64,000 bases of DNA from Naegleria gruberi (taxonomy: Eukaryota), in assembly GCA_000004985.1 (NCBI GenBank), contig GG738888.1; one strand, written 5' to 3'. The position numbers and the translations under genes are program-made. Within the stretch, counting starts at the first letter, position 1. Every line of letters starts with the position of its first letter. This document shows positions 45,721-63,861 of the stretch, one piece after another. Below the pieces are notes generated by a model that was given only the letters and a program-made list of their open reading frames with translations, was not told the DNA's origin and ran no database searches.

Positions 45721-45958
45721 TTTTTTGCTCTTTTTTTGGTCAACTCCGGCGAATTAGTGGATCAGAAACAGTGAGCACAAGATCTGATGGAATGTGAACT
45801 TTCATTACAAGAATTATTATTTTCACAAATTAACATCCAAAAAACATATTCTACATCTACTGATTGTATCATAGTTGGACTGCATTTTACGTGATTGAAC
45901 AGAATTAATTTTGATTCATCTCCTCTTCAAATCATTCTCAACCAATTAAGTATTATGA

Positions 45959-47155
45959 TTAATTCAAGATGCATTTCTTTTCTTTTTTTAAACTATTTAA
46001 ATATTTAATATCTTTTTCAATCACTTGTTGTAATATTGAATTTAAATTTGTTTGATTACCAAACCTAATTAACTTAACACCTTCTAGAAATGCATTTTCT
46101 ATACCCTCACCAGTTTTAGCACTACAAATAACTATATTTGTATTTGTTAGTTGATACTCATTAATAATATTAATAATTTCATTTTTCAATTTATCAATTT
46201 CATTGTTATCAGTAATTAAATCCATCTTATTTAATGCAAATATAATTGGAATATCTTCTGAATCTCTGATTCTAATTAATTGTTCAACTAAGGTCTTACA
46301 GAATTCAGCTGAGGAAAAATTAAATAAATCGCAAACATTGATAAAACAATCACCAGTTCTCATATATTGATCTATTCATATTAAATTATTGAGATATTCA
46401 AATCAACTTACCCCTATCAAATTAAATGATAAACAATCACATTTCACAACTTACCTCATAGCTGAGTATTCCTCTTGTCCATCTAATTAAATTAATTAGG
46501 ATTATCAAGTTTAATAATTCAATAAATGAAAATACTAACATGTATCTAATATATCAAGTTCAAACACCCTTCCATCAAATTCAATATTTCTTCTATAATC
46601 ATCATAATAACTTGGATCATATTGATCTGTATATCTATTCTGAATAAATCTAACCACAATCGATGATTTGCCTTATATCAAATATAATTACAATAAAAAT
46701 TAGATGAATAACATACCAACACCACCATCACCTATCATTACAAATTTAAGGTAATTGTCAGTAAAATCTAAATATTTAAATTGTTTATATTTAATATATA
46801 AAGTTAACAAAACAATCCTTTTTAAATTTGTTTTTTTAATTATTTGTTCCTTAATTATTTCATTATTCACTTTTATTGGTAAATAATTTTTCAATAACTC
46901 AAAATAAAATTCATTAAAATAATCACATTGATCATCATCGTACATTAATTTTTTACAACTTGTTTGAAAATTTAATAATTGTTTAATTTTAGTTGTATAT
47001 TTAATATTATAAGAATAACTAGTATCAAGAACATATGATAATATATTTAAATGTATTTCCAAGGGTAAATTAACGAACGTATTTTCATTATTGAATGATC
47101 GCATTTTTTTTAATTTAATTAATAATAACAAAAGTTCATCAAAGTAATCTTGCAA
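45959..47155 (-). CDS. F-box-like N-terminus + canonical Ras-family small GTPase; >=4 introns (exons ~46717..47155, 46540..46671, 46455..46482, [46412..46413?], 45959..46371)
   Basis: The N-terminus NLPLEIHLNILSYVLDTSYSYNIKYTTKIKQLLNFQTSCKKL is F-box-like. G1 GDGGVG|KSS is split by a 45-nt GTATGT intron. The G2/G3 region is [37 protein letters not shown]. The last exon has DQYMRTGDCF..., then G4 FALNKMDL and G5 CSAKTGEG. Confidence 0.7.
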
Positions 47156-47540
47156 ATCAAATAAAGCTATGGAAAGTCATCACAATAACAATGTCTAGTG
47201 GTGAAATAAAGAAGATATAAAGACACTCAGCAGTAAGAAACTAAAAGAAGACAATTGATGAAAAAGAGCTTATCGGAATAAGAGGAGTAAATTGCAATTA
47301 TTCTTCCCTGTCCGTCTTTTTGCACTGATGAGGCAAAAATACATTAAATTCATCATCAACACCCTCTCTTATTGAGGAGATATTAATGATGATTATTCAA
47401 CGACAATCAAATAAGAAAAAAATAAGAACAAGAATATTATCCTTCTTCCTTTTAAAATTGACAGACTCTTATGAAAAATGATGAACCACTTGAGAAGAAA
47501 ACATGCCCTGCCAACGGCTTCTACAACAGAGACTGTGAAT

Positions 47541-49449
47541 ATGGCTAATATTACCATCTTGATGGTGAATGATGTTTATGAATTGTTGGCGTAGGTAGTA
47601 GTAATTTAATTTCATTCCGAATGATGATGACAATGATGATGAATTTATTCATGAAGTGATGATAAAGGAGTTGGTGGATTGGCAGAATTGGCAACCATGA
47701 TTGATCAAGAGAAGAATAAATCGAGGTTTTCGATTTCTACTTTGAATGGTGATTTTATGAGTGCTTCGACTTTGGCAGAACAATTTAAAGGAGCTCACAT
47801 GATTGACGTATTGAATAATATGCCAATGTAAGTATGGTGGATGTTTGAATTTCAATGTTAATGTAATATTAGTGATTTTGTTTGTCCTGGAAATCATGTA
47901 AGTTTAGTTTTGGATTAAATTTTGGAATTAATTATTGGAAATTAGGAAGTAAGTGTTAAAATTTGAATAATGTTTGTGAATTTAAATGAAAATAGTTTGA
48001 TTTTGGATCAGAAATTTTGGAGGAACGCATTAAAGAATCTAATTTCAAGTGGATTTGTTCAAATGTTGTGTACAATAATGAGGAAACCAATGATAAAACA
48101 TTCAATAATTCTGAATCGAATATTTTGAAGGGAGTTTACAGAAAGTTTATTATTACTGACCCTGCTTTGGATGGTTTAAAGATTGGATTGTTTGGAGTTT
48201 GTACAAAATATTCGGAATATCTCAGTAAGCCTGGAAAATTAATCAAATTCCAACCAAGTATTCCTATTGCTAGAAGAATGGTCAATGAGCTTAGAAATGT
48301 AGATAAATGTGACGTTGTTATTGCCATTAACCATTTGAATATTGCCGATGATAAGGAACTGGTCAAAAGGGTGCCTGGAATAGATGTAGTAAGTATTATT
48401 TCTTGCAAACTCTTGCTAATTGACACAAATTCAAATACAGGTTTTGTCAGGTCACGATCATGAAGTATACACTGTCATCAAAGATAATTGCCTTATTCAC
48501 AAGGCAGGTCAGGATGCCAGATACCTCACAAGAATTGATTTAATTATAGAAAAGAATCAAACAACTGTAAATACTGGTAATCAATTCCATACTGTAAAGG
48601 TCTATCCATCATGTAACATGATGATTAATCACGGATACAAACCAAAAAAGAAAGTTTCAGATGTCATTCAAAAGTATATGGAAATGTTGCCACCAGGAAT
48701 TTTCGATCAAATTGGTGTCACTGAAACACCACTCTATTCCAGCACTGAAAGCTGTCGTTCTAAGGAAACCACTTATGGAAATCTTGTGGCTGATATTGTA
48801 AGAGAGGTTTGTTTTGAGAATTGTTTTTCAATATTTATTCTTTTTTGTTGTTCTTAAGATGTTTGATGCTGAAATAGCACTTTTCAATGGAGGTGGAATT
48901 AGAGGAGATCGTTTCTACGATCAAGGTAAAAAGATTACCAAATATGACATTCTCAAAGAATTCCCATTCCCTAATGAAATAGTTCTTTCACAAATTAAGG
49001 GAGTTGATTTATTAGCTGCTGTAGAGGAAGGAGTTCAGAAAGCAGAAAGTGTTGTTGGTGCCTTCCCACACTTCTCCAAAGGTATTTCGATCATTTATGA
49101 CAGTAGGAAACCTCCACTCAAACGTATCATTGAAATGACATTCAATGGCGAGAAAATTGATGAAAATCGCGTCTATTCATTTGCCACTGTTAAATATTTA
49201 CTTAAGGGAGGAGATGGTTTCTTCTCCTTGAAGAATGCAACCATTGTCGATCATCCAAGAAATGATCACAAAATTTTTGATATTGTTGTGGAATGGATTG
49301 AAAAATATCACATTTTGAAAGCTCACATTGAGGGAAGAATTATTGATATTGCCAGAGAACGTATCACTAATCAATGGAGTGGAACTAAGGGTGGAAGTGA
49401 TGACGATTTTGCAGGAGACTACGTTGAAGGAGACAATTTGAAATTCTAA
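47541..49449 (+). CDS. 5'-nucleotidase / UDP-sugar hydrolase family (calcineurin-like phosphoesterase + 5'-NT C-terminal domain), 6 exons: join(47541..47590,47657..47827,47873..47897,47996..48388,48441..48806,48859..49449)
   Basis: Metallophosphoesterase motifs are MANITILMVNDVYE (DxH-type motif with Y), STLNGDFMSAS and a GNH...FDFG motif that spans a 25-nt micro-exon (IDFVCPGNH). NFKWICSNVV matches the family's FPxLSANI. The C-terminal domain has FNGGGIRGD and GGDGF. Introns run 45-98 nt, all GT...AG. Confidence 0.75.
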
Positions 49450-49613
49450 CAAATTCTACAATGAATCTTTTTATTATTTTTGTAGTATATAGGAGCATCA
49501 TCCGTTTCATCATTAAATTATTAGCTTGTCATCTCAAGATTCGTCTGCTTTTGCCTTTTATAGTTTTCAAATATTTTATATTTATTATTTGTTTTACAAT
49601 TTTATTAAAAAAA

Positions 49614-51411
49614 ATGAAAGCACTGAAAGCTGCCAAAAGCAAATCATCAGCTGAATCAGTGTCGTTATTTTCAAAACGATTGCTGCTCTGTGTTGGATAT
49701 TCCGGAAATGGACTGAGTGGTTCTCAGTATCAGAGAAATGTTCCGGTAGAGAAGAGTATGTGATCATCATGATGATTATTAATTATTATATTAAACATAT
49801 TACAAAATTTATATTATTGGATGGGATAATACTGGATTGCAATTTCTGTGAATAATATTATTGGAAATATTGGAAAATTATAATAATAATTGATGAATTT
49901 ATAAAGCAATCGAAGGAAAATTAATGAAGTACATGATGGAGGCTGGATTATTGACTAATATTAAACCATTACCGAAACAACATGAAAATGATCATACCAA
50001 GAAACAAGAATATTTTACAAATCTCCGATCGAACATGGATTGGAATGCATCGAGTAGGACAGATAAGGGAGTTCACTCAATTGCCAATATATTTTCATGT
50101 AAAGTTCCCGAGAGTGTTAAGGAGAATGTAGATTGGATTTCAGAATTGACTAATAGATTTTCAAATGTTGAGGATTCTTTACGAGTTTTTCATTTGGAAA
50201 CAATTAAGGAGGATGCAGAGAATTTCAATAGCAGGAAATTTGGATTGTGGAGAACATATGAATATTTCATTCCACAATATTGTCTGAAAGGAATGATTAG
50301 CGAGAGTAAAATGACACTCTATCAAAAATTGGCAAAAAAGCCAACCGTCACGTTGCCAGACGTTAACTTGGAAGCTGTTTGCAAACAGCTCAATAATGTA
50401 TTTTCTAGGATGGAAGGATTCAAGAATTTCCAAAATTTTACCTCAAACACTACATCAAATGGATCTTCAGAGGGAGGTCAAGAGGATGATTTGGATACCT
50501 TTCAAAATTCTGACACTGTTGGAAATCAGTACCATAGAACTGTATTTCAATGCTTTGCTAAGCCTTATACAATTGGAGTTCCAAACTCCAAGTTACAACA
50601 AGCATCTGGTTTAGCACCCATTTCATCATCAGACGCATTGAGAGGAGTACTAATCAAGGTGACAGCCAGTGGTTTCCTCTATCATCAAATCAGAAAAATG
50701 GTTGGATTGGCAATTTCACATTTAATCTTTCCAAAGGAAATTAACGATGAATTTATCGACATTGCCATCAACTCAAAAGAAACAATGTTCATTCCGACAG
50801 CCCCTGGCGACTCTCTCATTCTTCTTCATACTGCACTCAGAGACTCTTCCATGGAGAATAGAATTTATGGAAATTCCAACAGCTCAAAGAGGTCTGAATT
50901 CTACGATGGTTGTACCAACAAGGAAATGGAACAATTCAGAATTCACCATCTCTATCCTGAAATATTGACAGAAACTCCAGCCTCCTTCATTCATGTCCAA
51001 TCCTATCTAAACAGTGAGAAGAAACAAGAGGAAAAGAAGAATCAAAAATCCTCATGGATTCAACTCGCCCAAGAATTGAAATTCTACCTCAAAGACCTCA
51101 TCGAACAGAAAGAACATGTCAAGGCACGAGCCAAGAAGCAAATAGAAGAATCGAAAAGGAGAGACGAATGGAAGAAGAAGGAAGAGCGAGAACGTCGAAT
51201 GAGGACAACCATTGGAGAAAATACAGAGCTTCTCCCATCAGGTTACAAACTCCACTTTTACATCAAATTTAAATGTCTCCCAAATGAGGAGAAGAGCACC
51301 AAGGCATTGAATATTTTGGAACAACTCTATCGATCAAAGGAAATACCAATTGAGGAAACCAATTTTGAAACTCTAGATCAAATACTAATTTCAAAACTTA
51401 ATTTATCATGA
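49614..51411 (+). CDS. tRNA pseudouridine synthase, TruA/Pus1 family, with long K/E-rich C-terminal extension; join(49614..49755,49907..51411)
   Basis: Exon 1 (aaaaaaaATG) has RLLLCVGYSGNGLSGSQYQRN, the TruA N-terminal motif. A 151-nt intron (GTATGT...AAAG) follows. Exon 2 continues TIEGKLMKYMMEAGLL and carries the catalytic-Asp motif RTDKGVHS and then LYHQIRKMVG. The C-terminal 120 aa are charged coiled coil (KKQEEKKNQ...RRDEWKKKEERERRMR). Confidence 0.75.
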
Positions 51412-51571
51412 ATTTTCACAAACACAATTCTATATTCTTAAATTCTAGAGTGTCATCTTGTGAATGTTGCATTGTAAAGTAACTCAAATCCAGACATGAA
51501 ACTCTAAAAATAAATTTTAAAATCAAAAAAAAATAGCTCCAATAACACAATTAATTCATCAATTTTTAAAA

Positions 51572-53413
51572 ATGTTTCCTGTTATTAAATTCCATTCCGA
51601 TATAGAATCTGCCATCAAGGGAAGAAAAGAATTTGTAACGCAGGTCGATGAAGGCTTCCGATTCATCAAATATAAATCCATCGTAGAGAATACATTTGCC
51701 GATCAATCGACCATGAAGGATATGACCGATCGGGAAAGGCTTGATCAATTAATTAGACGCGAATGTAGAGGAATTATCTTTGAAGAGAAGAGTAAGAAAA
51801 TTGTGTGCAGAAAATTCCACAAATTTTTCAATATTAATGAAAGAGTTGAGAGTAATATTGAAAAGATTAATTGGAAACGACCATTTGTGGTTGTGGAAAA
51901 GATGGATGGAAGTTTGGTTTCTCCAATTTTTGTTTCTTCAAAGAGGGATATTTCAGATATTCGATTTACAACCATGTTGGGATTTACTGCTATGGCCAAG
52001 AATATGGTTGCTGGATATATTGATAAGAATTTAGCGCAGAAGAATTTGAGAAAACCATTCTTGGAATTTTGTAAATATTGTTTGGATCAGGGTTGGAGTT
52101 GTAGTTTCGAATATACTGGACCACAGAATATTGTCGTGATTAAATATTTGGAAGAGAAATTGACTCTACTTGCCATTCGTCATACAGAGAGTGGTGAATA
52201 TTTGACCTACCAGGAAATGAAAGATATTCTCGATAAGAATCCAAATTGGCAAAAGGCAGTCAATTTGGTGAGCTTGTGGAAAGATTTCCCACAAGGAACT
52301 GAAGAACCTCAAAAACTCTTATCAGAAATTTATGAACAGAAAGGATTGGAAGGATACGTCATTCGATTCAATGATGGTGATTTCTACAAGGCCAAAACTA
52401 AATATTATATGTGTTTCCATGGAATTGCAGATAATTCTTCAGAACCTAACAAACAGGGATCTTCATCCATGTTCAGTGCTGAGAAAATTAGAGAACGACA
52501 CATTGTTAAGGCAATTTTAAGTGATGTGATTGATGATGTAATCAGTGGAGTGTTCTGGACTACTGAAATGAAACAAGTAGTTTCAAAATATCGAATTGAA
52601 TTGGAAACTAAAATTTTGGCCAAATTTGAAGAGGAAATCTGGCCAATCCTTAAAAAGGCAATTTCATTCTCAAAGAAGGGTGTTCCAAATGAGTCGATCA
52701 CTTCGAGAGTTATTTCTGGGAAATTAGCCACTACATTTACTGGTGATTTTATTAAGGATATGATTTCGAAACTTTCCAAAGAAGAAAGTTCAAAGAATTC
52801 GAATTACAAAAATCAAGAAAGTGACGAAGAAGAGGAAGAATTTGATTCGAAACCAAGTCAACAATCAAGAGGAAATATGTGGAGCGTTCTCCAAGAGGAA
52901 GAAATTGAAGATGCCGAGCAAGATGCCAAACTCGACAATGAATCAGATGGAGAAAAGGAGGAGAAAAAATTGGAAGAAACTATTCAGCAAACTTCCAATC
53001 TAGTAATAATTGAGGAAGAGCAACCAACCCAAAGTATTTCATTCGACATTTCAGGAATGAAATTTGCACCAATTAAGCCTACTGAGAAACCACAATCAGA
53101 GCAAGAACAAATCGAATCTCAAAAGAATGTTGCCTACGAATGTTACAAAATTTTCTTACAAACCAAGATTTTCCAAGTGAGCGAGCCAAAAGCATTCGAA
53201 ACTAAAAAGTCCAAAGTCTACGATTGGTTAAACGTCGATTTGAAATCTGGAATTATGGGAAACTATGCATTCGATAGTAAAACTGGATCCCTTGTCAAGA
53301 ATTCCACAAGAAAAGTATTGACCAAACCATCAGCCTCTTCATCTAAACATATTGAAGAGGATGATCACGATTTCTCCAACAGCAAGAATAAGAAGAATAA
53401 AAAACGAAAGTAA
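51572..53413 (+). CDS. Phage T4 Rnl1-family ATP-dependent RNA ligase homolog with ~250-aa charged C-terminal tail, intronless, 613 aa
   Basis: Start context is aaaaATG. The protein is collinear with T4 RNA ligase 1. ECRGIIFEE matches T4 ECRGIMFEM, and KFFNINE matches KFFNLNE. The adenylation motif VVEKMDGSLVS matches TKEDGSLVS. CSFEYTGPQNIVVIKY matches ANFEFVAPTNRIVLAY, and ESGEYLTYQEM matches ETGEYISYDDI. Motif IV/V EGYVIRFNDGDFYKAKTKYY matches [20 protein letters not shown]. The tail is D/E/K-rich and ends KNKKNKKRK. Confidence 0.75.
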   Translation: MFPVIKFHSDIESAIKGRKEFVTQVDEGFRFIKYKSIVENTFADQSTMKDMTDRERLDQLIRRECRGIIFEEKSKKIVCRKFHKFFNINERVESNIEKINWKRPFVVVEKMDGSLVSPIFVSSKRDISDIRFTTMLGFTAMAKNMVAGYIDKNLAQKNLRKPFLEFCKYCLDQGWSCSFEYTGPQNIVVIKYLEEKLTLLAIRHTESGEYLTYQEMKDILDKNPNWQKAVNLVSLWKDFPQGTEEPQKLLSEIYEQKGLEGYVIRFNDGDFYKAKTKYYMCFHGIADNSSEPNKQGSSSMFSAEKIRERHIVKAILSDVIDDVISGVFWTTEMKQVVSKYRIELETKILAKFEEEIWPILKKAISFSKKGVPNESITSRVISGKLATTFTGDFIKDMISKLSKEESSKNSNYKNQESDEEEEEFDSKPSQQSRGNMWSVLQEEEIEDAEQDAKLDNESDGEKEEKKLEETIQQTSNLVIIEEEQPTQSISFDISGMKFAPIKPTEKPQSEQEQIESQKNVAYECYKIFLQTKIFQVSEPKAFETKKSKVYDWLNVDLKSGIMGNYAFDSKTGSLVKNSTRKVLTKPSASSSKHIEEDDHDFSNSKNKKNKKRK

Positions 53414-53418
53414 ACGAT

Positions 53419-54708
53419 TTATGTCTCACTAAGTATTTCTGAATATTCACAATAATTACATATGTCTCTTTCATCCTCAAATACATCCCTAATATTTCTT
53501 CCATGTACGAGTTTTTCAATCACTTTCTTTCGAACAGAATCAAATTGGTTAATTCTATAGTAGACAAAAACTGCCAAATTATGAAATGAATAAAGGGGAA
53601 GCAATAATGGCAAATCGGTGATCAATAATTCCACCTTCTCAACTATTTCTTTCATAGCATGGACTTGCAAGTTTAAGTATTTAAATGTGGAATAAATACC
53701 GTAAAGGTGCATCAGTTCAATACTGGCATGTTTGATATGTTTTTGGTGGTTAGTGAGGCTCTTATTAGAAATCATGTTGTAGAGTAATTCTCTAACTGAA
53801 CATATTAGAGATATTGTAATTGGAGCATTTTCTAACGAAACACCATTGTTGATTGATTGTAAATCATACTTGTTGTCGTTTACGTAAACATCATAAAACT
53901 TGGTAAAGAGTTTCCATACTATTTTCAAGCTCTCCACATCATCATCTCCAGCTGAGATGTGGGACTCAATTTTGGAGGCAAGCATTTCAAATTTCATTTT
54001 TTTAACATTATCCAAAAGTGGATCATTTTGAAATTCCTTAATATATTGTAAATAACGAGAAGCCAATTCAACCTGCCCTTCACCAACTGCATATAAAGCA
54101 ATAAGTGATTTGGAAACTTTGGTACAAAGGTCTATGGGATGAGCCAATGATGAATAGTGTACAGACTCTCTAAAAGAAACAATAGAAAGCGCAGGTTGAC
54201 TCATTGATTGTTCACATAAACTTTGAACAACCAGAAGCAATGCCCTAACCGAATACTCCCTCTCCAACAAATCCACATTCAAGACAATTTCTTCCATCTG
54301 TTCCTTACTCAAAAAGTCAATTGTGACATCCACATAATCGTAGAAATAATTAATGATGGCACTTTGAATATTTCCTCTCACCAAACTTCTCTCCCTCTTC
54401 ATGAAAACTGTTTGTTGTACATGTGATTTTGGGAGATAGGGGCGGAATGTTTTTGTTGTTACTTCTATTTGTACTTGCATTGTTGAAGGAGCAATATTGG
54501 CCAATGTCTTATTCTTTGGACCTCTCTTAACTCGTCTCTTCTTTGGAGGTACATAGAGACATGATCTTCCTCTCATACTACATTCAGAACATGAGGGTTT
54601 TAAACGATCGCATGCAAGATGTGATTTTCTACAAGCTAAACAATTAATTTGTTTCGTAGATACAACTTGACTATCATTTTCCAATTCTACATCATATTCA
54701 TCATTCAT
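53419..54708 (-). CDS. Zn(II)2Cys6 binuclear-cluster (GAL4-type) transcription factor-like protein
   Basis: An N-terminal CLACRKSHLACDRLKPSCSECSMRGRSC motif (C-x2-C-x6-C-x5-C-x2-C-x6-C) is followed by a basic stretch PPKKRRVKRGPKNK. The first ATG is at about 54708; the track ORF starts at GTG. Confidence 0.6.
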   Translation of the reverse strand: MNDEYDVELENDSQVVSTKQINCLACRKSHLACDRLKPSCSECSMRGRSCLYVPPKKRRVKRGPKNKTLANIAPSTMQVQIEVTTKTFRPYLPKSHVQQTVFMKRERSLVRGNIQSAIINYFYDYVDVTIDFLSKEQMEEIVLNVDLLEREYSVRALLLVVQSLCEQSMSQPALSIVSFRESVHYSSLAHPIDLCTKVSKSLIALYAVGEGQVELASRYLQYIKEFQNDPLLDNVKKMKFEMLASKIESHISAGDDDVESLKIVWKLFTKFYDVYVNDNKYDLQSINNGVSLENAPITISLICSVRELLYNMISNKSLTNHQKHIKHASIELMHLYGIYSTFKYLNLQVHAMKEIVEKVELLITDLPLLLPLYSFHNLAVFVYYRINQFDSVRKKVIEKLVHGRNIRDVFEDERDICNYCEYSEILSET

Positions 54709-55009
54709 TCCTGCATGCAACACGAAAGAGATTCAAATCGAGTCTTTTTATTAATTATTTTCTTAAATTGCTAAAATAAACCGAACCTCATCATGTGCGA
54801 GGGTACCATGACGTTCGTTGAAAAGGCTTTTTTTTGTGTGAGATTTGTGCTAGCGATTTATCAACCAACCAAAAACATTGGCGCCAAATTTTGTTACAGG
54901 ACCTCGTACGCACAAAATGTGTGTGCTTTAAATTTTGAGCCTCGCAATTATCATTACTTCCAAACAATATAAAAAAACAATTAAACAATTCACTTAGATA
55001 ATCATCATC

Positions 55010-56188
55010 ATGTCCAAGCAACTTATGAAGCCAATCACAGTTAAAGGTTACGCAGTAGCTGAACCAACAGAAACTCAAAAATTTCTCTTGAAACCAATTG
55101 AGCAACAAGTAAATAGCTTGGGTGAAAATGATATTTTTGTTGACATTATTGCCAGTAGTATCTGTTATGGAGGTAAGTGAATATGCAATCTTTCAATTTT
55201 TGGCAATGACTCTCGTATCAGATTTTCTAGCATTCCATCATGTTGGAAATATTCCTGGTCATGAAATTGTGGGAATTGTAAGACATGTTGGTGAGCGAGT
55301 TGAAAAGGATGGAAAGATAGCCGTGGGCATGAGAGTTGGCATGGGTTGGAATTATTCCTCTTGCTTAGAGTGTGGATCTTGCAAGCATCATTTTGAAAAT
55401 TTGTGTGATTCCTCCAAGCCATTCATGAATGCACCAATTGGTGGTGGTTTCCAGAATGGAGTCGTTTGGGATTCGAGATTTGTTTATCCAATTCCTGAGA
55501 AATTGAAGTCAGTTGATGCTGCTCCATTGTTTTGTGCAGGAGCTGCCGTTTTCTCGCCTTTAAAACTTTATCGTGAAAGCCCTTATTCTAAACCAAACGA
55601 ATTCAAAGTTGCTGTTCTTGGATTGGGTGGTTTAGGCCATTTAGCTCTTCAATTTGCTTCCAAAATGGGTTTCCATGTTACTGCTCTTTCCACAAGTGCT
55701 AACAAGGAAGAAGAATGTAGATTATTTGGAGCCAATGATTTTCATGTCCACACCAATGAAAATTCTGTAAAACAATTGAACAGCAATTTTGATTTGATTC
55801 TCAATTGTGTCAGCACCGACATTGATACTGACAAATTTGTGAAAATGTTGAAGCCATTCGGCAAGTTGGCAATAATTGGAGTTCGTAAGTTTTAACAATT
55901 TATTCCAATTATTCAAAATTGAAATTTCAAGCATCCTCTGGAAGTATCAAAGCAGGTGCTTTTGCCATGATTATGAAGAATCGTTCAATTGTTGGTTCTG
56001 GAGGTGCCTCCAACGATCAAATTAGAGAAATGTTGAATTTTGCTGCTGAGCACAATATCAAACCTCAAATTGAATTGAGTTCCTTGGAGAAAGTCAACGA
56101 AGCAATGGAGAAGGTTGTTAAAAATCAAGCACGTTACAGAATTGTTATGGTTGTAGATAAAGAAATAGTTGATAAGGAAAATCAATAA
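55010..56188 (+). CDS. Zinc-dependent alcohol dehydrogenase (cinnamyl/mannitol dehydrogenase-like MDR family), join(55010..55172,55222..55884,55932..56188)
   Basis: Catalytic zinc motifs are SICYG|DFLAFHH (a 49-nt GTAAGT...ATCAG intron lies between CYG and D) and GHEIVGIV. The structural zinc site is CLECGSCKHHFENLC. The Rossmann motif is VLGLGGLGHLALQFA. The C-terminus SIVGSGGASNDQIREMLNFAAEHNI is reached across a 47-nt GTAAGT...TTTCAAG intron. Confidence 0.8.
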
Positions 56189-56584
56189 TGCAATGATAAA
56201 GGACTTCTATGGATTTGAAATTAACAAAGAATAAAGTAAACTATTCCAAGTTAAACCGAATCAGCTTACTGTTTTCAATCCATTGTCCATTAATTCTGTC
56301 ACTGCAAACCTCAAGTGTCGGTCTTTTCACAAACTCCTCTTCACTGTCGCATTCAACTTTCGTCCACTTTCAAAAATCAATTTTTTAACGTCTCAAAAAA
56401 AAATCCTCCACTTCTAACCTCTCCCGCCAATTTTTACATTTTCAAAAAACGCTCATCAAATTTTTCCCTCCGAAATTTTTCAATTTTTTTCATCATTAAG
56501 AAATTTTCAATCAAACGACTTTCAATATAAAAATTTAAATATTTAATTGATAATAATTGATAAGATTGATAGTTAATATTCGAT

Positions 56585-56715
56585 TTTATATTTCATTTTG
56601 GAAAGAAGGAAAGAAAATTTTAATATATAATATTTAAATATATTTAATAATAATAATACTCATAATAATATTATTGGAAATATACAAATAATAATAATAA
56701 TATATAAATAATAAT
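56585..56715. repeat. AT-rich (AAT)n/(ATA)n low-complexity tract in the promoter region of the gene at 56716
   Basis: The sequence includes aataataataatactcataataatattattgg and aataataataataatatataaataataat. Confidence 0.5.
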
Positions 56716-57654
56716 ATGGTTTGCCAGAAAAGCAATGGAGTTTCTCCTAAACTAGTTTCTCAAATAGAAGACAAGGTCGAACAATTGAGGGAAATTTACA
56801 AGAATCAACAATTCAAGACTGTGATCATGTCCAATCAGACGAATGCCATCTTTTATCATGATCCGAAAATATTACTCTCCAATAATGCGATTCCGAATAA
56901 TTCACCACTCACCATTTACAATAGTTCGAGCAATTCGAATAATAATAACAATACGATAACCTCATCAAATTCATCAGGAATTAACAATACAATAACCAGC
57001 AATAATACTACGAGTACTACTACTCAACCCATTACGATTATTACGACAGTGAGTCATTCGAATAATAATAATACAGCAACTTCTTCGCCGCCTACTTCAA
57101 TTACACCTCCTTTGAAAAATACTTTTAAGAATCAATCACCCAAAGAAATATCAGCAACTAATTTGACAGCTCAACTTGGAATGTCAGTTTCACAAATTTC
57201 TCAATCTCAATCACCACATTCTCCAACAACTCATTCACCAGTTTTTGAAAGTCAATCGATTGGATTTGTTGTTGGTTCTATTGAAGATCTTTCGCAACGT
57301 TTGAGACAATATTTGGAAAGTGTTGACAATTTTGTAAAATTATTTGCCGAAGACGAAACTCAGCAATTTATTAGTCAAGGAATTTATCATATACGTGGAT
57401 GTAGTGGATTAATGAATGGATCTTCGAGCTCGTCACTCAATTCCAATGCCAACCATAACAGTTCGACCTTAACTTGTAGTATTTTTGTAAAAACTGATAT
57501 CACTTGTGCAATTTTCACAGATGTTTATGAACAAGGAGCTTTGAGTATGTCAGAAGATATGGATAAGGAAATTCTGGACATTGTAGATCAATTACAATTG
57601 CTTTTGAAAGGAGCCATTGAAAAGGAAAAGCAAATGTTAAAAAATAAAAAATAG
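56716..57654 (+). CDS. Hypothetical S/T/N-rich protein, 312 aa
   Basis: ATG ORF. The central region is low complexity (NSSSNSNNNNNTITSSNSSGINNTITSNNTTSTTTQP). I see no recognisable domain. Confidence 0.35.
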   Translation: MVCQKSNGVSPKLVSQIEDKVEQLREIYKNQQFKTVIMSNQTNAIFYHDPKILLSNNAIPNNSPLTIYNSSSNSNNNNNTITSSNSSGINNTITSNNTTSTTTQPITIITTVSHSNNNNTATSSPPTSITPPLKNTFKNQSPKEISATNLTAQLGMSVSQISQSQSPHSPTTHSPVFESQSIGFVVGSIEDLSQRLRQYLESVDNFVKLFAEDETQQFISQGIYHIRGCSGLMNGSSSSSLNSNANHNSSTLTCSIFVKTDITCAIFTDVYEQGALSMSEDMDKEILDIVDQLQLLLKGAIEKEKQMLKNKK

Positions 57655-57984
57655 TAAAATAACATAAACTCTTATTCGAATGTCTTGTTATTCGAATAAA
57701 AGGTTAAATAAGAAGAAGATGAGGAGGATTGTAAGATTGTGGAATGAGCTCTGATTGAATTTCATAAGATCCAAATTAAAAGTGAAATTTTACAAACTGT
57801 AGAGCCGTCAACAATCAGTGACATCAAAAATCACTACTTAAAAAAAATACAATTAACCATCAGCCCTTCTTTGATTGTTGAACAAGCGATATTGCAAATA
57901 ACAACATCAACAATCAAGAAAACAGCCTCTGAGATCCAAACATTCGTTTAATTTCCAATAACAACAAAAATCTAGACGAAAATA

Positions 57985-59064
57985 ATGGACGAAGAAAATA
58001 CACAACAACCAGCAACAACTTTCGGCAACACCCGAACCATTCACGATGAAACCAAGAAGCGTTGGTACGATCACATCCATTCCAATCATATTTGCTTTTC
58101 CTTCTTCATGTTAGCAACAGTTGCCCTGTTAGCAATTGTCATTGGTTATTTGGTTCCAGTTTGGATCTATGGACCAACTTCTACTCAGTGCACATTAATT
58201 ACCAAAGCAATGAATTCATCATTCATTGGTGAGGATTTGAAAGCAACTTATAGAAAGTTCAGAACTGAATTTAATGTGAAATATCAAGCGTATATTCCAC
58301 AACAAGGAAAAGATATGATAATTCAATCGACAATGTATGGACCAAGTGTTGAACGATGGGATAATCCTAGAGAGGCAGGTTATGTTCTGTCATATGCCAT
58401 TAGAAATGAATTTTATAATAATTATCAAGTTGGACAAGTTTTTGATTGTTTTTATTCAAGTTCAGATCCATATACAGTTGTTATTGAATATGATCCAAGA
58501 TATTATTCATTGATTGCATTACCAATTATTTCATTCTTGCTTGGTTTGTGGGTTTTGTGTTATCCACCAATTGAAAAGTATATTAGAGCTCAATTTGATC
58601 AACGCCAACAATTTAAGCAATATATGGAAATTTCACAAATGGAAGAAACATATGATAAGGAAATGGAAGCACGTGTTGCTTCTGATTTATTCTTTGATGA
58701 TACTGTTGGTGCTTATCGTAGAATTGGAACTGGTGAAATTGTTCAACCAAGTGCCGAAGGTGAAGATTTGGATGATGAATTTGAATTGATTGAGGAAGAA
58801 ATTGAAGTGATTGGTAAATTCTTTGGTAAAAGTGTTGAAGAACATGGTACATTTGTGCAAAAGCCAATTTCTGAACTCGATAGAAATGAAACTAGCAATA
58901 TCAAGATTGTTTCTCAATCTCAACAAGATGAAGAGGAGGATCCAACTCCAACACTTGAAATTAAACCAGCTGTCACCCAACCAACCATAACACCTCAATA
59001 TACTCTCCTCGTTTTGGATGATGATAGTGAAGATGAGGAAGATGATGACGATTATGATGATTAA
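57985..59064 (+). CDS. Hypothetical two-TM membrane protein with acidic C-terminal tail, 359 aa
   Basis: Start context is aaaataATGG. Hydrophobic helices are ICFSFFMLATVALLAIVIGYLVPVWIY and LIALPIISFLLGLWVLCY. The C-terminus is DDDSEDEEDDDDYDD. Confidence 0.4.
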   Translation: MDEENTQQPATTFGNTRTIHDETKKRWYDHIHSNHICFSFFMLATVALLAIVIGYLVPVWIYGPTSTQCTLITKAMNSSFIGEDLKATYRKFRTEFNVKYQAYIPQQGKDMIIQSTMYGPSVERWDNPREAGYVLSYAIRNEFYNNYQVGQVFDCFYSSSDPYTVVIEYDPRYYSLIALPIISFLLGLWVLCYPPIEKYIRAQFDQRQQFKQYMEISQMEETYDKEMEARVASDLFFDDTVGAYRRIGTGEIVQPSAEGEDLDDEFELIEEEIEVIGKFFGKSVEEHGTFVQKPISELDRNETSNIKIVSQSQQDEEEDPTPTLEIKPAVTQPTITPQYTLLVLDDDSEDEEDDDDYDD

Positions 59065-59108
59065 TTTGTGTGATAAAGTTTATTTTATAATTCATGTTGG
59101 TTAGCTCT

Positions 59109-62100
59109 TTATTCCTCATCCTCTTCAACCTCAACAGATTCTTCATCGCTATTGTATTCGATTTTACCATCCTTACCTTCCTTTCTGGAACTGTAATCAA
59201 CTAGAGAAGGTACACTGGCACGAGCATAGCCAAAATTAAATACTTGGAAGCTTCCAACACCATGCAACAACATTTGAGTTTTCTCACCAATATCACAACA
59301 AGTCCAACCTCTTTCCAATGCCGATTTGACAACTTTTGCTTTGGCCCTCTTCTTTTCATTCTTCTTTGCTGATTTGTTCTTGGTTCCAATATTTCTGATT
59401 TCAGTAAGTGTTTTCTTTCTCTCCTCATTGTTCGGTTCTTTCCAAAAGTCTTCCAGACCTATTGGATAAATTCCCTCCATAGATGGAATAAAATAAGTAT
59501 GAACTGAAGAAGTAATATACGAGACAAGGTGAGTAGGTTTGCTCAAATTATGAACTCTATTCTTGAGCTCTTGTTTTGTTTGATTATTCCATAAACTGAC
59601 ACGTCCAATATGTTTCTTATCGTTAAATTCTTCCTCAATCAATTCAATTAGAATTTCAGCAACCTTAATCTTGTGTGTGGTAGACAATTCTCGGAGTGTA
59701 CTAAGGAATTCCTGTGGATTTTTAGAAAGTGTAACTAAGGCAGTATCTTTCGACTCTTGGTTTGAGAAGGATGTAATAATATCTGTATACTTTTGTCTGC
59801 TCTTTTTTGGAAGATTTTCCACTAATATTCTTAACACCTGTAAAATGCCTAATTTGCCATCATCCACAGATTTTATATCTTCTTCATCCTCCTCTTGTTC
59901 TTTCATTATAGAAACAACTTCCTTTTTAGTGTTATCTGGTATCTCGTCAAATAAAATATGCTCCAAGCTTTCCCTTCTTTCATCTGCTTTTTGAGGGTTG
60001 AACAACTCATATTCCAATACTTTTTCCATATATATTAATGCTCTGAGCATTGCAGAGTCATGTGGAGAGTAGACCTTATGTTCATATGAATATTCATAAA
60101 ATTGTCTAATATCATCATGAACAATATGGATTGATTCAATGTGAAGATAATTTGCAACAGCTAATATTGAAGAATGTACAATTCCATACCCAAGGGCAAC
60201 ATCAGAGTCTAATATCAAAAAGAAATAATCAGAAGGATTACCTTCGTTTTCTTCAATAGATTTCTTGTATCTTGCAACATACTTGCTCTCTGTTACAATT
60301 ACGAACATGTGGTGGAGATTGTTTGTCTTGGCATATCTTCTATCTGATTCATATATTTGAAGTTTGTAATTCTTTCCTCTAGGTCTTGTCAAAATAAACA
60401 ATGGTTTCAAGCCATTACTATTCAACTTTCTGATTGGACTTGAAACCTCTTCAACTGTTTTTGTGTTATAAGAGAGCAATAATTGCTTACTCGTTCTGTC
60501 AAACTTCACTAACAACTCATTGGCTTCTCCTTCGTGATCAACTTTTTTGATTGCTATTTGTTCCCTATTACTTTTTTTCAAATCAAAATCCATCAACTTA
60601 TCATTTGGAGCACAGTAATGTTTTTCTGCAATATCTTTCACATCACTACTCTCAGACTTTGGCATTGACAATATCTCTACATATTTACAAGGTTGAGGAT
60701 ATTTAGAGTTCAATTCTGTTGGAACTTGTGCATACTTGGCTGATTTACGCTTGTATTTTTCAAACAGCAATTTTACATTGTTATCCATTCCAGAACTGAT
60801 TTCTTTTAGTGATTCCTTGATTGCTTCAAAGTATGTCCTAATGTGCTCATGAAAATTACATAGACCAGAGTGTATTGTTTCAAGAAAATCGTCCACTTTG
60901 CTGTTGTCATTAATATCCAGTATTTTTACCAACTCTTTTACAACATTCGTATCTAACATATCACTGTAAGAAACACAGGTACTAATAATTGACTGTTTGA
61001 AAGAATTAGCTGTATGAGTCAGGAAGAGAGTGAAACTTTCCACAGTTTCTAAAAAATTCTCCATAAAAGTATTGAAATGATTGGACCAGTCCACTTGTTT
61101 TTCCTCAGATTTTAATCTTCTTCTGTAACTAGCACCAAATTTTTGGAGTCTTGCTGATATATCCCTCTTGTCGAACAAAAGAGCTATTGGAGATTCATAG
61201 AATGATATCAAACTATTAATAAGAGATGAAAGATCTCCTCCATATAGATAGTCAGCATCTGGTGAATAGCTAATTGTCAATTCTAAATTTTCAGCAAACA
61301 TTTCACATAATTGCCTTCTTACTTTGTTGAATTGTTTACAGAACTGTGCTGGGGCCTGATTTTCTTTAGGAACCTTAATGTTGGATAAAATTACAACTGC
61401 CATATCTCTTATCATACTGGCATTATATTCAATGACTTTCTTTCTATTCTTTTCAATGATATATCTGAATTTTTCAATAAATGAATCAGTTTTAGCGTTC
61501 TGAGGAGGGAAAAATGTTACTCCAAAATTATCCTCCAATGATTTTACAAAATTGATTTTGTCATCAAATTCAACTGGTGTTGAGTTTACCACATCCCTTT
61601 CTGACAACACAACACCTTCCAACAATATATCATAATGTAGAGCTAGCTGTTTTCTAAAAGATTTTTTCATACCCTCAATAAGCTCATAGTTATCCAATAA
61701 ATCATAGTATGTAGACTCAACTATATTTGGATTGTTACAGAGAATGGCTATGGAAGGTCTTATTACCTGACTAGGTTGATGAATTCCATATTCCCAAGCT
61801 TTTCTTACAATACCATCATCTAAGATATTTCTGTTATTTTCAATGCCCGATACAATTATGCAAGTATCTAGGAAGCTTTCTCTAATAAATTGCTTGTATA
61901 GTTCTCCCTCTGTCAATTCATCATAACCTGGCATATCCCTTAGAATTACTCTACTCTCTTTAAGGAATGGGCTAGGAACTTTTAGTACAAGTTTCTTTAC
62001 AGTCAAAGAGTCAAAAGTTGTTTTCTCCTTCTCATATTTTTCAATCACTTGTCTTGCTCTTGCAAGAATGCAAGAAAGTCTTTCAGTATCAGTATTGCCA

Positions 62101-63257
62101 CTCAATATTATATTTGATTGAGAGTCAATTTCAATATTTTCCAATTGTTTCTCATAGCTTAACTTTTTTCCTTCATTTTTTACATTCTTTTCGCGTAAAT
62201 TATACTCTTGTACGGTACACATTTCCTTAGTGAGACTGTAAAATTCATCATACATGATATCAATAACTGTACTAGTGATACCCTTTCCAAGTAAATAAGT
62301 GCCTGATGGAAGAGGATAATTATCACATTGGAAACCTGAAACCAATCTATTAATCATATATGATTTACCATAACCTGGCTTTGCAAAAAAAGAAACAACC
62401 ACTCTTTCATCAATTTTCTTAAGTATTTCCTGAATTCTTTCAATGTGCTCAGAACACATATTAGTGATTGCATTCTTTTGTTTGCAGAAATTGTCAAAAT
62501 ACTTTTTCACCCTTTCATAATCCTCCCTTTCTTCCTTGATAAGATTTGCATTCGATTCAAGTATTTCATCAAGTGGAGATTTAACCAAAAAGTTCAAATT
62601 AGTAGTAGAAGCTTTTCTGTGTTGTGAAGAAAGAGTAGGAGAATGAGAGGAAGGAATTGGTAATTGTTCAAGTTGAGAACTGGCACTTACTGCAACTGTT
62701 GGAAGTGGTAATAATGTGCTAGCAGCTGTTGTTGCATTAGAGGATGATTCTCCAGTCATCACCACATCATTATCTTCATCATTTACGTGATGATCTTGTG
62801 GTGATGGCAATGGTTTTACAGGTTTTTCCTTCTTTCTCTTCTTACTGGCAGATGATGACTCGGAACCCTTCTTCTTTGATGAAGAAGCAGCATCACTCTT
62901 TCTCTTCTTATCTGCCTTCTTGGCAGATTCTAATTGGTTGAGGAAGGAATGTCTCATACTCGATGGACCAAACATGAGTAAATTATCAAGAGTAACCAAG
63001 GCTTGTTTTCTTCCCTTTCCTTCTCCATTGATGAAATTCTTGATTAATCGTAAGCCAATAACCAAGTGAAGGGTCGATGATACTTGACTGTTCTTATCCT
63101 GAATGCTCACACGGAAGGGAAGTAATATGAGAGAAACAAAGTTCTTTCCAGCAGCTTTTCCATAAGAATCGAGACGAATTAAATGTTGTTGACTACCTGC
63201 AATGTTGTTATAGCTTGTTTCAGAGTGCTTGTGGCTCTTCAAACCGAGATGATGCAA
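59109..63257 (-). CDS. Large (>1300 aa) protein with dynamin/IRG-like GTPase domain (G1 GYGKS, G3 DMPG) and long uncharacterised C-terminal region; 5' end unresolved
   Basis: The N-terminal region is basic (KKRKSDAASSSKKKGSESSSASKKRKKEKP). The GTPase elements are FFAKPGYGKSYMINRLVSGF (P-loop) ... LLGKGITSTV ... VILRDMPGYDE (DxPG). The remaining ~800 aa have no motif I recognise. The track ORF starts at TTG, and the first in-frame ATG is about 95 codons in. Confidence 0.5.
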   Translation of the reverse strand: MHHLGLKSHKHSETSYNNIAGSQQHLIRLDSYGKAAGKNFVSLILLPFRVSIQDKNSQVSSTLHLVIGLRLIKNFINGEGKGRKQALVTLDNLLMFGPSSMRHSFLNQLESAKKADKKRKSDAASSSKKKGSESSSASKKRKKEKPVKPLPSPQDHHVNDEDNDVVMTGESSSNATTAASTLLPLPTVAVSASSQLEQLPIPSSHSPTLSSQHRKASTTNLNFLVKSPLDEILESNANLIKEEREDYERVKKYFDNFCKQKNAITNMCSEHIERIQEILKKIDERVVVSFFAKPGYGKSYMINRLVSGFQCDNYPLPSGTYLLGKGITSTVIDIMYDEFYSLTKEMCTVQEYNLREKNVKNEGKKLSYEKQLENIEIDSQSNIILSGNTDTERLSCILARARQVIEKYEKEKTTFDSLTVKKLVLKVPSPFLKESRVILRDMPGYDELTEGELYKQFIRESFLDTCIIVSGIENNRNILDDGIVRKAWEYGIHQPSQVIRPSIAILCNNPNIVESTYYDLLDNYELIEGMKKSFRKQLALHYDILLEGVVLSERDVVNSTPVEFDDKINFVKSLEDNFGVTFFPPQNAKTDSFIEKFRYIIEKNRKKVIEYNASMIRDMAVVILSNIKVPKENQAPAQFCKQFNKVRRQLCEMFAENLELTISYSPDADYLYGGDLSSLINSLISFYESPIALLFDKRDISARLQKFGASYRRRLKSEEKQVDWSNHFNTFMENFLETVESFTLFLTHTANSFKQSIISTCVSYSDMLDTNVVKELVKILDINDNSKVDDFLETIHSGLCNFHEHIRTYFEAIKESLKEISSGMDNNVKLLFEKYKRKSAKYAQVPTELNSKYPQPCKYVEILSMPKSESSDVKDIAEKHYCAPNDKLMDFDLKKSNREQIAIKKVDHEGEANELLVKFDRTSKQLLLSYNTKTVEEVSSPIRKLNSNGLKPLFILTRPRGKNYKLQIYESDRRYAKTNNLHHMFVIVTESKYVARYKKSIEENEGNPSDYFFLILDSDVALGYGIVHSSILAVANYLHIESIHIVHDDIRQFYEYSYEHKVYSPHDSAMLRALIYMEKVLEYELFNPQKADERRESLEHILFDEIPDNTKKEVVSIMKEQEEDEEDIKSVDDGKLGILQVLRILVENLPKKSRQKYTDIITSFSNQESKDTALVTLSKNPQEFLSTLRELSTTHKIKVAEILIELIEEEFNDKKHIGRVSLWNNQTKQELKNRVHNLSKPTHLVSYITSSVHTYFIPSMEGIYPIGLEDFWKEPNNEERKKTLTEIRNIGTKNKSAKKNEKKRAKAKVVKSALERGWTCCDIGEKTQMLLHGVGSFQVFNFGYARASVPSLVDYSSRKEGKDGKIEYNSDEESVEVEEDEE

Positions 63258-63861
63258 TTGCTGATTGGTTTCGTGGTAGTTGATGTTGTTTTACCAAGAG
63301 AAGAAAAATCAAAATTTAATTCTCTTTGAATAATTTCTTCATCTGTCTTTGCAGTGGTGGATGTTCTTTCAACGTAACAACAGATAAAATCCTCTTCTAA
63401 TTCGGTGGATAATATTGTTATTGGTGTAGTGTTGCTTGTTGGATGGAAAATAACGTGAAGATCGGCGTATCTTGGATCATGATTTTTGTTTGCTTGGATT
63501 GTGAGTTGGAGAGAAGGTGAGTTGTTAACGTTGATAGAAAAGTTTGCCTTGACACGATTTATGGTGGGCTCACTTTCCGTTGATGATGTACTCAACATTT
63601 TTTTGTGGGTTGAAAAATATTAAACCTGTCATCACAACATTATTCAACAAACAAAGTTTTATTATTGCCTCGCAAAAATTAAAGATCGTAGTTGTATTCG
63701 TGTTGTGTGGATGCAAAGTATTTATCAAGGTCAAAAGGTAATGTTTGAGGGTGTTCCGGTTCATTAGAAGCAACAGGAAGTAAGATGTAAGACAGGAGGT
63801 CCTCTTCGAGTGTAGAAGCTTCAACGGGCAAGGTAGAGAGTAAGTACTCTGAGGAAGACAT
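63239..63861 (-). other. Possible 5' exons or 5' region of the large GTPase gene, or a separate small gene; unresolved
   Basis: Three overlapping minus-strand ORFs lie here in different frames (63239..63598, 63570..63824, 63679..63861). The most upstream one begins with a true ATG (MSSSEYLL...). I could not find frame-consistent GT..AG junctions to the 59109..63257 ORF. Confidence 0.2.

Follow-up and report, generated by a model that had tools for sequence, protein, structure and literature searches.

We have analysed a large minus-strand gene in the 64,000-nt stretch of Naegleria gruberi DNA presented above (contig GG738888.1, the whole of which is referred to here as the window), previously described in an earlier note, made from the sequence alone, as a giant dynamin/IRG-like GTPase lying within 59109..63861. 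The longest terminal open reading frame (ORF) of the window, 59109..63257, comprises 1382 codons and is listed with the TTG start that the note reported, although this start reflects the rule of the ORF lister, which takes the first ATG, GTG or TTG after a stop. The ORF is 100% identical to the NCBI hypothetical protein NAEGRDRAFT_80834 of N. gruberi, annotated as 1288 aa and beginning at an internal Met at window position 62975; no papers mentioning this locus tag were found in a literature search. The main coding exon, 59109..63196 with the stop codon included, contains the annotated coding sequence, in a window whose G+C is 26 to 37%. A single continuous ORF holds two folds and conserved catalytic motifs, in an architecture that recurs in homologues. 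We interpret the locus, with moderate confidence, as one gene encoding a putatively NTPase-gated glycosyltransferase.

The sequence features on which the original description rested are all located in this minus-strand ORF. GYGKS occurs at ORF residue 295 (window 62375) within a full Walker A motif, AKPGYGKS, preceded by the hydrophobic strand VVVSFF, while DMPG occurs at ORF residue 441 (61937) and is preceded by the strand VILRD. Upstream of both is a Lys/Ser-rich basic linker, AKKADKKRKSDAASSSKKKGSESSSASKKRKKEKPVK (62814..62924), containing two KKRK motifs which resemble nuclear localisation signals. At our rough estimate of ~0.1 Walker A patterns per 1382 residues, the motifs alone are not beyond chance; the G1 and G3 motifs are considered real because they are conserved across an 11-member family alignment (A1). 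Several independent genes within 59109..63861 were also considered and rejected, being opposed by the uninterrupted 1382-codon ORF and by the co-linear architecture observed in more than 10 homologues. The proposal of one large gene for a dynamin-superfamily P-loop nucleoside triphosphatase (NTPase) is supported.

The homologue search that the note had proposed was performed with HMMER, exhaustively, against 1.84 billion cluster representatives, with source names taken from cluster look-ups, and returned 22 relatives of the window protein. Full-length relatives were detected with expect values (E) of 1.7e-228 (NAEGRDRAFT_49157), 8e-187 and 2e-138, with Willaertia magna at 4.7e-46 and Paraphysoderma at 2e-6. 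They include the N. gruberi paralogues NAEGRDRAFT_49157, _74876, _47587 and _75306 (P0002, P0024, P0014 and P0021, respectively). Further members originate from W. magna (P0006), from N. fowleri as fragmentary gene models (P0009, P0051, P0052), from the fungus Paraphysoderma sedebokerense (P0018) and from environmental or run assemblies (P0004, P0007, P0013, P0023), and P0015, P0016, P0019, P0020, P0022, P0025 and others are shorter proteins consisting of the C-terminal domain only. The NTPase motifs and the C-terminal glycosyltransferase motifs are co-linear in 11/11 proteins of A1. No fewer than four N. gruberi paralogues share the entire architecture, as do Willaertia, one fungus and a partial homologue from N. 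fowleri. Direct scans of the window protein itself against Pfam, PDB sequences, PADLOC, PHROGs and NCBIfam returned nothing usable.

Two relatives have unusual gene models. In N. fowleri the homologue is split over several models, P0052 (CAG4707742.1), P0051 and P0009 (FDP41_003142 and FDP41_003141), and may be either mis-annotated or decaying. In one N. fowleri model a fragment of the homologue is merged with an AlkB-like 2-oxoglutarate (2OG)-Fe(II) oxygenase domain (PF13532, E 1.5e-12); because the two are merged in one model, the genes are probably adjacent and on the same strand. A 2OG-Fe(II) dioxygenase beside such a gene recalls the pairing of TET/JBP enzymes with TET-associated glycosyltransferases (TAGT). 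The paralogue P0014 (NAEGRDRAFT_47587, 1662 aa) is extended at its N-terminus by ~480 residues that contain Cys-rich repeats of EGF-like type (DUF7949, E 4e-4) and represent either a real extension of extracellular type or a merged gene model, and part of its stalk is missing in the alignment.

The NTPase module was investigated with an AlphaFold2 model of window 60399..62579 (727 aa, built from a 16-sequence alignment), which reached a mean predicted local distance difference test (pLDDT) of 78.5. The model predicts two N-terminal helices, a Rossmann-type G domain and then ~320 residues of long helices. A dynamin-type G domain with its two preceding helices can, on the basis of motifs, model and Foldseek matches, be assigned to 61695..62579, with the P-loop AKPGYGKS at 62361..62384, the switch-I Thr within GITSTV at 62265..62282, the G3 motif DMPG at 61926..61937 and NNPN in the G4 position at 61725..61736. 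Seven of these residues, G376, G378, K379, T409, D522, P524 and G525 (1463-aa numbering), are invariant in 11/11 proteins of A1, and in the model the motif residues are located on the canonical β1/P-loop/α1 and β3-DxxG elements. The G domain is followed by a long helical stalk or bundle at 60720..61694 (helices H298 to H617 of the 727-aa segment). A PADLOC match of the stalk to ZorA (E 1.2e-4, residues 611-754) was regarded as noise arising from helical composition and discarded.

Foldseek comparison of this model with the PDB returned dynamin-superfamily structures in 41/41 matches at E <= 1e-3, with a best probability of 1.00. Campylobacter DLP1/2 (1.3e-8), the bacterial dynamin-like protein BDLP (9.5e-8) and mitofusin-2 (MFN2, 5e-7) were the best matches, followed by SynDLP, dynamin, IniA, Drp1, OPA1 and Mgm1 and, more weakly, by EHD, atlastin, MxA and GBP1 (1.2e-3 to 7.9e-3); the alignments to BDLP, DLP1/2, SynDLP and dynamin extend over 600 to 800 columns. 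In Pfam, Dynamin_N (PF00350, cut-off 27 bits) scores 51.3 bits in the homologue P0021 and 43.4 bits in the homologue P0006, both above threshold, and is the best match of the family consensus (E 0.0042, 17.6 bits). These results support assignment of the module, as modelled, to the dynamin superfamily, closest to the BDLP/mitofusin type. Of the dynamin/IRG-like character originally proposed, the dynamin half is therefore supported and the IRG half is not: the 50 best Foldseek matches include no IRG structure, comparison of the profile with PDB sequences brings up an IRG chain at E 0.15 only, and there is no Pfam IIGP match.

In common with BDLP (Nostoc 2j69), Campylobacter DLP1/2 (5owv, 5oxf), MFN1/2 and SynDLP, the Naegleria protein has the G1 (GxxxxGKS), switch-I Thr and G3 (DxPG) elements, a G1-to-G3 spacing of ~140 residues and a G domain placed between N-terminal helices and a long helical stalk; the structural alignments to these best matches (E 1e-8 to 1e-6) cover 600 to 700 columns. 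It differs from them in having NNPN at G4, in lacking a membrane paddle or transmembrane region, in scoring below the Pfam Dynamin_N cut-off on its own and in possessing a C-terminal glycosyltransferase; we know of no characterised dynamin that carries one. Over the whole chain, TM-scores reach only 0.2 to 0.3, low values that are expected if hinge angles differ.

The structures closest to the module, BDLP, bacterial dynamin-like proteins, mitofusins, OPA1 and dynamin, are all membrane-active, which would fit a protein that tubulates, fuses or cuts membranes and whose glycosyltransferase acts on membrane glycans or polysaccharide, for example in cyst-wall or glycolipid synthesis. The membrane-remodelling role suggested in the note did not, however, gain support from the window protein: hydropathy analysis detected no transmembrane helix and no strongly hydrophobic, paddle-like segment, the top 19-residue Kyte-Doolittle mean being 1.41 and located inside the glycosyltransferase core. 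In addition, Pfam detects no PH or other lipid-binding domain, and the basic KKRK motifs and acidic tail look nuclear. A membrane role is consequently considered very improbable.

The C-terminal portion of the protein, ~800 aa which had been termed uncharacterised, still matches no Pfam model in this protein, although it can be resolved into the helical stalk, a small β subdomain and a glycosyltransferase of TAGT type. The β subdomain (60420..60602) links stalk and glycosyltransferase and is predicted to consist of three strands and one helix (AlphaFold E676-679, E689-694, E699-704 and H706-717); pLDDT is only 54 to 76 here, while the region is conserved in A1. The glycosyltransferase domain itself, 59202..60416, was modelled as 405 residues from an 18-sequence alignment with a pLDDT of 87.5 and a predicted template-modelling score (pTM) of 0.84, and adopts a GT-A fold. 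It is split by a helical insertion of ~130 aa (59613..59996). An HDD motif of the DxD type (60111..60119, ORF residues 1047 to 1049) comes directly after E95-100, the central strand of the model, which is where a GT-A enzyme is expected to have its DxD motif. In the close clade (alignment A5) D101 never varies, and D100/D101 vary rarely or not at all in the stand-alone clade (A4); the glycosyltransferase motif is degenerate in the paralogue P0021.

The relationship to TAGT enzymes was indicated by several comparisons. In the viral structure library BFVD most of the best-ranked named matches are phage TET-associated glycosyltransferases (ranks 2, 5, 6, 9, 10 and 15; E 9e-5 to 4e-3), aligned over ~400 columns across both halves of the domain, and in this ranking annotated TAGT proteins stand structurally closer to the domain than other viral glycosyltransferases do. 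The profile of the window clade matches that of the stand-alone clade in hhalign with a probability of 100% (E 1.3e-43, 351 columns). Members of the stand-alone clade in turn have Pfam TAGT (PF20691) as their top match (E 3.6e-5 to 2e-3), and one of them, P0016, matches phrog_842, the β-glucosyl-hydroxymethylcytosine (HMC)-α-glucosyltransferase, at E 1.8e-5. TAGT scores of P0025, P0056, P0065, P0016, P0029, P0048 and P0019 are sub-threshold, 18.6 to 24.2 bits, and TAGT is also the best Pfam match of the family consensus (E 0.0013, 19.1 bits); in the relatives it is always the top glycosyltransferase match and never above cut-off. Comparison of the C-terminal domain profile with PDB sequences gave helical noise only, and tblastn of the stand-alone P0016 against phage genomes gave no match. 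Based on the modelled fold together with the BFVD, hhalign, TAGT and phrog_842 matches, the C-terminal domain is predicted to be a GT-A enzyme, with the TAGT DNA glycosyltransferases as its closest recognisable relatives, by a link that is transitive and below the Pfam cut-off.

In the stand-alone relatives P0015 and P0025, from metagenome assemblies, a B-box zinc finger (ANCHR-like_BBOX, E 1.3e-4) is located where alignment A2 places the helical insertion of the Naegleria domain; because the B-box sits at this position, the insertion site may be a hotspot for adaptor modules. Downstream of the glycosyltransferase the protein ends in an acidic tail, ..EYNSDEESVEVEEDEE (59112..59201; A1 columns 2000 to 2040). 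The C-termini of closer family members carry a related motif, [FY]-[DN]-S-D-acidic (FDSDEE and variants).

Kinship of the glycosyltransferase with phage enzymes, combined with the presence of Mx and GBP among the structural matches, brings into consideration an innate-defence or genetic-conflict GTPase like Mx, GBP or IRG, in which a dynamin-like sensor and oligomeriser would bring a glycosyltransferase to bear, as effector, on invading DNA, viral or foreign, or on its proteins. The family is multiplied in Naegleria, with at least five divergent N. gruberi paralogues whose identity to the window protein over A1 is 19 to 39%, the N. fowleri homologue is fragmented over gene models and the glycosyltransferase motif of P0021 is degenerate, all of which are consistent with such a role. 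Mx and GBP rank far below BDLP and mitofusin, however, and a multiplied gene family is circumstantial evidence only; moreover, Willaertia and the fungus share the architecture with well conserved catalytic motifs, which a housekeeping role fits equally. We assign this explanation the lowest probability of those considered. The membrane-remodelling and immune-GTPase readings are possible but less supported than a nuclear enzyme that modifies DNA or protein.

Phage TAGT proteins and the T-even phage enzyme of phrog_842 have in common with the Naegleria domain the GT-A fold and a DxD motif after β4. In contrast to them, the Naegleria domain contains the ~130-aa helical insertion, scores below threshold with hidden Markov models, has conserved C-terminal motifs of its own (HIGRVSLWN, PTH..S, GI.P.S and QMLLHGVG.FQV) and is fused to a dynamin-like NTPase rather than encoded beside a TET/JBP gene. 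The kinetoplastid base J glucosyltransferase, JGT, is likened to the Naegleria domain by description only; Euglenozoa are related to Heterolobosea, and we know of no JGT fused to an NTPase and of no report of base J in Naegleria. GREB1/GREB1L, also likened by description, is similarly a large eukaryotic protein in which a TAGT-related C-terminal domain follows a big non-glycosyltransferase region, but the upstream module in Naegleria is a dynamin-like G domain and stalk, whereas the N-terminal region of GREB1 comprises a zinc ribbon and a circularly permuted helicase-like domain. JGT is a eukaryotic TAGT-family enzyme which acts on hydroxymethylated DNA bases in Euglenozoa (PMC7968844), and Shin et al. 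2021 (PMC7968844) connect the GREB1 glycosyltransferase domain with phage TAGT as well as with the J-base glucosyltransferase.

These relationships lead to an alternative in which the gene encodes a GREB1-type protein glycosyltransferase that O-glycosylates Ser/Thr of nuclear or cytoplasmic proteins, for example with O-linked N-acetylglucosamine (O-GlcNAc), the NTPase constituting a regulatory or scaffolding module like the large N-terminal region of GREB1. The TAGT-related domain of GREB1 is reported to O-GlcNAcylate estrogen receptor α (ER-alpha), and GREB1-like glycosyltransferase proteins are reported to occur in "Naegleria-like Heterolobosea" (PMC7968844). The GT-A fold, DxD motif and TAGT relationship also fit this alternative, and the stand-alone relatives are located on eukaryotic-looking contigs with intron-split neighbour genes, some carrying the B-box zinc finger. 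Conversely, no direct sequence link to GREB1 was found, in that Pfam scans of the family returned no GREB1-named family, and the nearest annotated matches are DNA-modifying phage enzymes. On balance we regard a GREB1-type enzyme as a possible though unlikely explanation.

The 5′ end of the gene, for which the public annotation starts at the internal Met at 62975, is probably mis-annotated or incomplete, in agreement with the suggestion that the gene model was incomplete. Where three upstream ORFs had been counted, one with an ATG, the ORF listing contains four on the minus strand, two of which have an ATG: 63239..63598 (ATG, 119 aa), 63418..63555 (GTG, 45 aa), 63570..63824 (TTG, 84 aa) and a 60-codon ATG ORF, MSSSEYLLSTLP..., at 63682..63861 (63679..63861 in the ORF listing). 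The note could not splice them in; the first joins the main exon in frame. In this model an ATG-start coding exon, MLSTSSTESEPTINRVK..., at 63295..63598 would supply the first part of an N-terminal domain of ~190 aa and is followed by a 98-nt, phase 1 GT-AG intron read from the sequence (GTAAAAC...ATTGCAG, 63197..63294), removal of which creates an uninterrupted frame of 1463 codons as compared with the 1288 aa annotated.

Coding statistics are consistent with this extension. By our own calculations from base composition, 119 open codons in the ATG ORF 63598..63239 have a chance of ~1.5e-4 per frame, and the 94 codons for which the large ORF remains open ahead of the annotated Met have a chance of ~1e-3 or less. 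Codon-usage log-odds, for which 17 further long ORFs in the window served as training set, are +0.137 per codon for the ATG exon and +0.195 per codon for the 73 codons from the acceptor to the annotated Met, compared with -0.096 for the overlapping frame-2 ORF. The 5′ end can thus probably be extended by the ATG exon 63598..63295 across the 98-nt GT-AG intron to give 1463 aa, which is our preferred model from ORF statistics and splice dinucleotides only, and the public model NAEGRDRAFT_80834 is probably short by ~175 N-terminal residues.

The ORF at 63861 still cannot be placed and lies outside the gene model; it may be a first exon, an upstream ORF (uORF) or part of the 5′ untranslated region (UTR). 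Its codon-usage log-odds are mildly positive, +0.118 per codon. Its first 18 residues include 9 in-register identities with the N-terminus of the paralogue NAEGRDRAFT_74876 (P0024), a match which is suggestive only in shuffle tests (p 3e-4 and 9e-3) and not significant by BLASTP. Splicing of this ORF to the next exon was attempted and abandoned, 18 in-frame GT-AG joins being found, none with a convincing donor, and other ORF pairs of the window gave a splice consensus with too much noise to be of use.

Pfam analysis of the proposed N-terminal domain yielded nothing meaningful, the sole listed match being DUF6702 at E 0.013, below cut-off. Within this region, model residues 132-151 (window 63100..63160, SIQDKNSQVSSTLHLVIGLR) match ubiquitin residues 55-74 with 11/20 identical (pairwise BLASTP E 1e-4), and in the PDB sequence search polyubiquitin chains are on top. 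QQHLIRL, just past the proposed splice junction, also resembles ubiquitin QQRLIF by eye. A ubiquitin-like domain was not adopted, as Pfam ubiquitin gives no match, and the similarity is kept as a hint only; the stretch may be a divergent β-grasp domain or may be due to chance.

Combined, these results are best accommodated, at the moderate confidence stated above, if 59109..63598, possibly up to 63861, is one gene for an enzyme of ~1460 aa, a putatively NTPase-gated TAGT-type transferase. The proposed order of domains is an N-terminal domain of ~190 aa, the basic linker, the dynamin-superfamily NTPase (G domain and stalk), the β subdomain and the C-terminal TAGT-type GT-A glycosyltransferase. 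NTPase and glycosyltransferase both apparently remain intact on one polypeptide, with the DxD motif present as HDD and predicted to bind metal and nucleotide sugar. Like other dynamin-superfamily proteins, the dynamin module would dimerise or self-assemble in a nucleotide-dependent manner and so position or gate the glycosyltransferase on a polymeric substrate, to which sugar would then be transferred from a UDP-sugar.

The most likely setting would be the nucleus, which is proposed because the protein has KKRK motifs and an acidic tail of Ser, Asp and Glu but no membrane-binding elements. The KKRK segment may act as a nuclear localisation signal, and short basic motifs also occur at the N-termini of P0002 (RKRK), P0023 (KKRK), P0021 (KRK) and P0024 (KRRR). 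The acceptor would most likely be a hydroxymethylated DNA base, 5-hydroxymethylcytosine (5hmC) or 5-hydroxymethyluracil (5hmU), made by the TET-like dioxygenases of Naegleria, a suggestion that derives from the TAGT/phrog_842 kinship and the existence of the Naegleria TET enzymes. Naegleria has systems able to generate 5-methylcytosine (5mC), oxidised 5mC and perhaps oxidised thymines (PMC4738411). Ser/Thr of nuclear proteins would be the next likeliest acceptor, from the precedent reported for GREB1. Assignment of the acceptor is the weakest step of the proposal, DNA being slightly favoured over protein by analogy. In its broadest form, the proposal would be that Naegleria, and heteroloboseans more widely, contain glycosylated hydroxymethyl bases in nuclear DNA, resembling base J or the glucosyl-hydroxymethylcytosine of phages, written by dynamin-like, NTP-driven glycosyltransferases after TET-like dioxygenases; we regard this as doubtful.

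Several observations weigh against the interpretation as an NTPase-gated TAGT-type transferase. The window protein itself matches neither Pfam Dynamin_N nor Pfam TAGT, so that both assignments are transitive or structural, and even the best TAGT score in the family, that of the full-length fungal P0018 (27.0 bits, E 5e-6), remains below the gathering cut-off of 27.5. The G4 motif [NT]KxD, which confers guanine specificity, is replaced by NNPN after the strand SIAILC, with only the first Asn in common and the Asp not conserved in A1. The protein had been called a GTPase and its G domain is of dynamin type; because the G4 Asp is not conserved, the nucleotide used may be GTP or ATP. Linkage to a TET/JBP gene is not expected in a eukaryote, and no TET/JBP family was detected among the eight neighbouring ORFs scanned (41861..59064). 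GREB1 is reported to be a cytoplasmic protein O-GlcNAc transferase and not DNA-modifying (PMC7968844). As for the gene model, further in-frame GT-AG pairs are possible besides the 98-nt intron, and no homologue backs the 5′ extension; a resemblance to the P0023 N-terminal domain, which MAFFT and inspection by eye had made plausible, was dropped after BLASTP against the P0023 N-terminus (E >= 28).

Both modules belong to known superfamilies and it is their combination that appears to be new. If the fusion works as one enzyme, the dynamin superfamily would extend from membrane remodelling and pathogen restriction to delivering or gating a covalent-modification enzyme. The Naegleria TET enzyme is a standard structural and biotechnological model and, to our knowledge, no enzyme has been identified for a step after TET oxidation in Naegleria; a functional fusion would provide a concrete candidate for this step and a testable hypothesis. 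It would also provide a simple, intron-poor, single-polypeptide system in which to ask whether glycosyltransferases of the TAGT/GREB1 type modify DNA or protein. Should the nuclear-DNA glycosylation reading be true, the enzyme would represent a new type of eukaryotic DNA-modification writer, with a dynamin-superfamily motor on chromatin rather than membranes. No dynamin–glycosyltransferase (TAGT/GREB1) fusion is described in the literature searched, which did not cover the founding TAGT paper (Iyer et al. 2013), so that a prior mention there is possible.

The neighbourhood of the gene was also surveyed. A plus-strand ORF at 57985..59064 (359 aa, with no Pfam match and an acidic tail) converges on the gene, leaving 44 nt between the stop codons (59065..59108), and because of this short distance the 3′ UTRs must overlap or be very short. 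On the minus strand, PF00172, a binuclear cluster domain of the fungal Zn(2)-Cys(6) type, is matched at 22.7 bits (cut-off 21) by an ORF at 53419..54723 of this heterolobosean genome. The plus strand contains a 613-aa ORF at 51572..53413 that strongly matches the T4-type RNA ligase 1 domain (PF09511, E 1.1e-35), adjoined by a pseudouridine synthase ORF at 49924..51411, also on the plus strand. In 46001..48000, where no ORF reaches 200 aa, G+C is the lowest of the window (0.259, as compared with ~0.33 to 0.36 in the remainder). Two minus-strand ORFs, 41861..43537 and 43528..45720, overlap by 10 nt in different frames; both contain NHL repeats, with teneurin-like EGF domains in the downstream one, and they are probably one gene split by a short intron or a frameshift.

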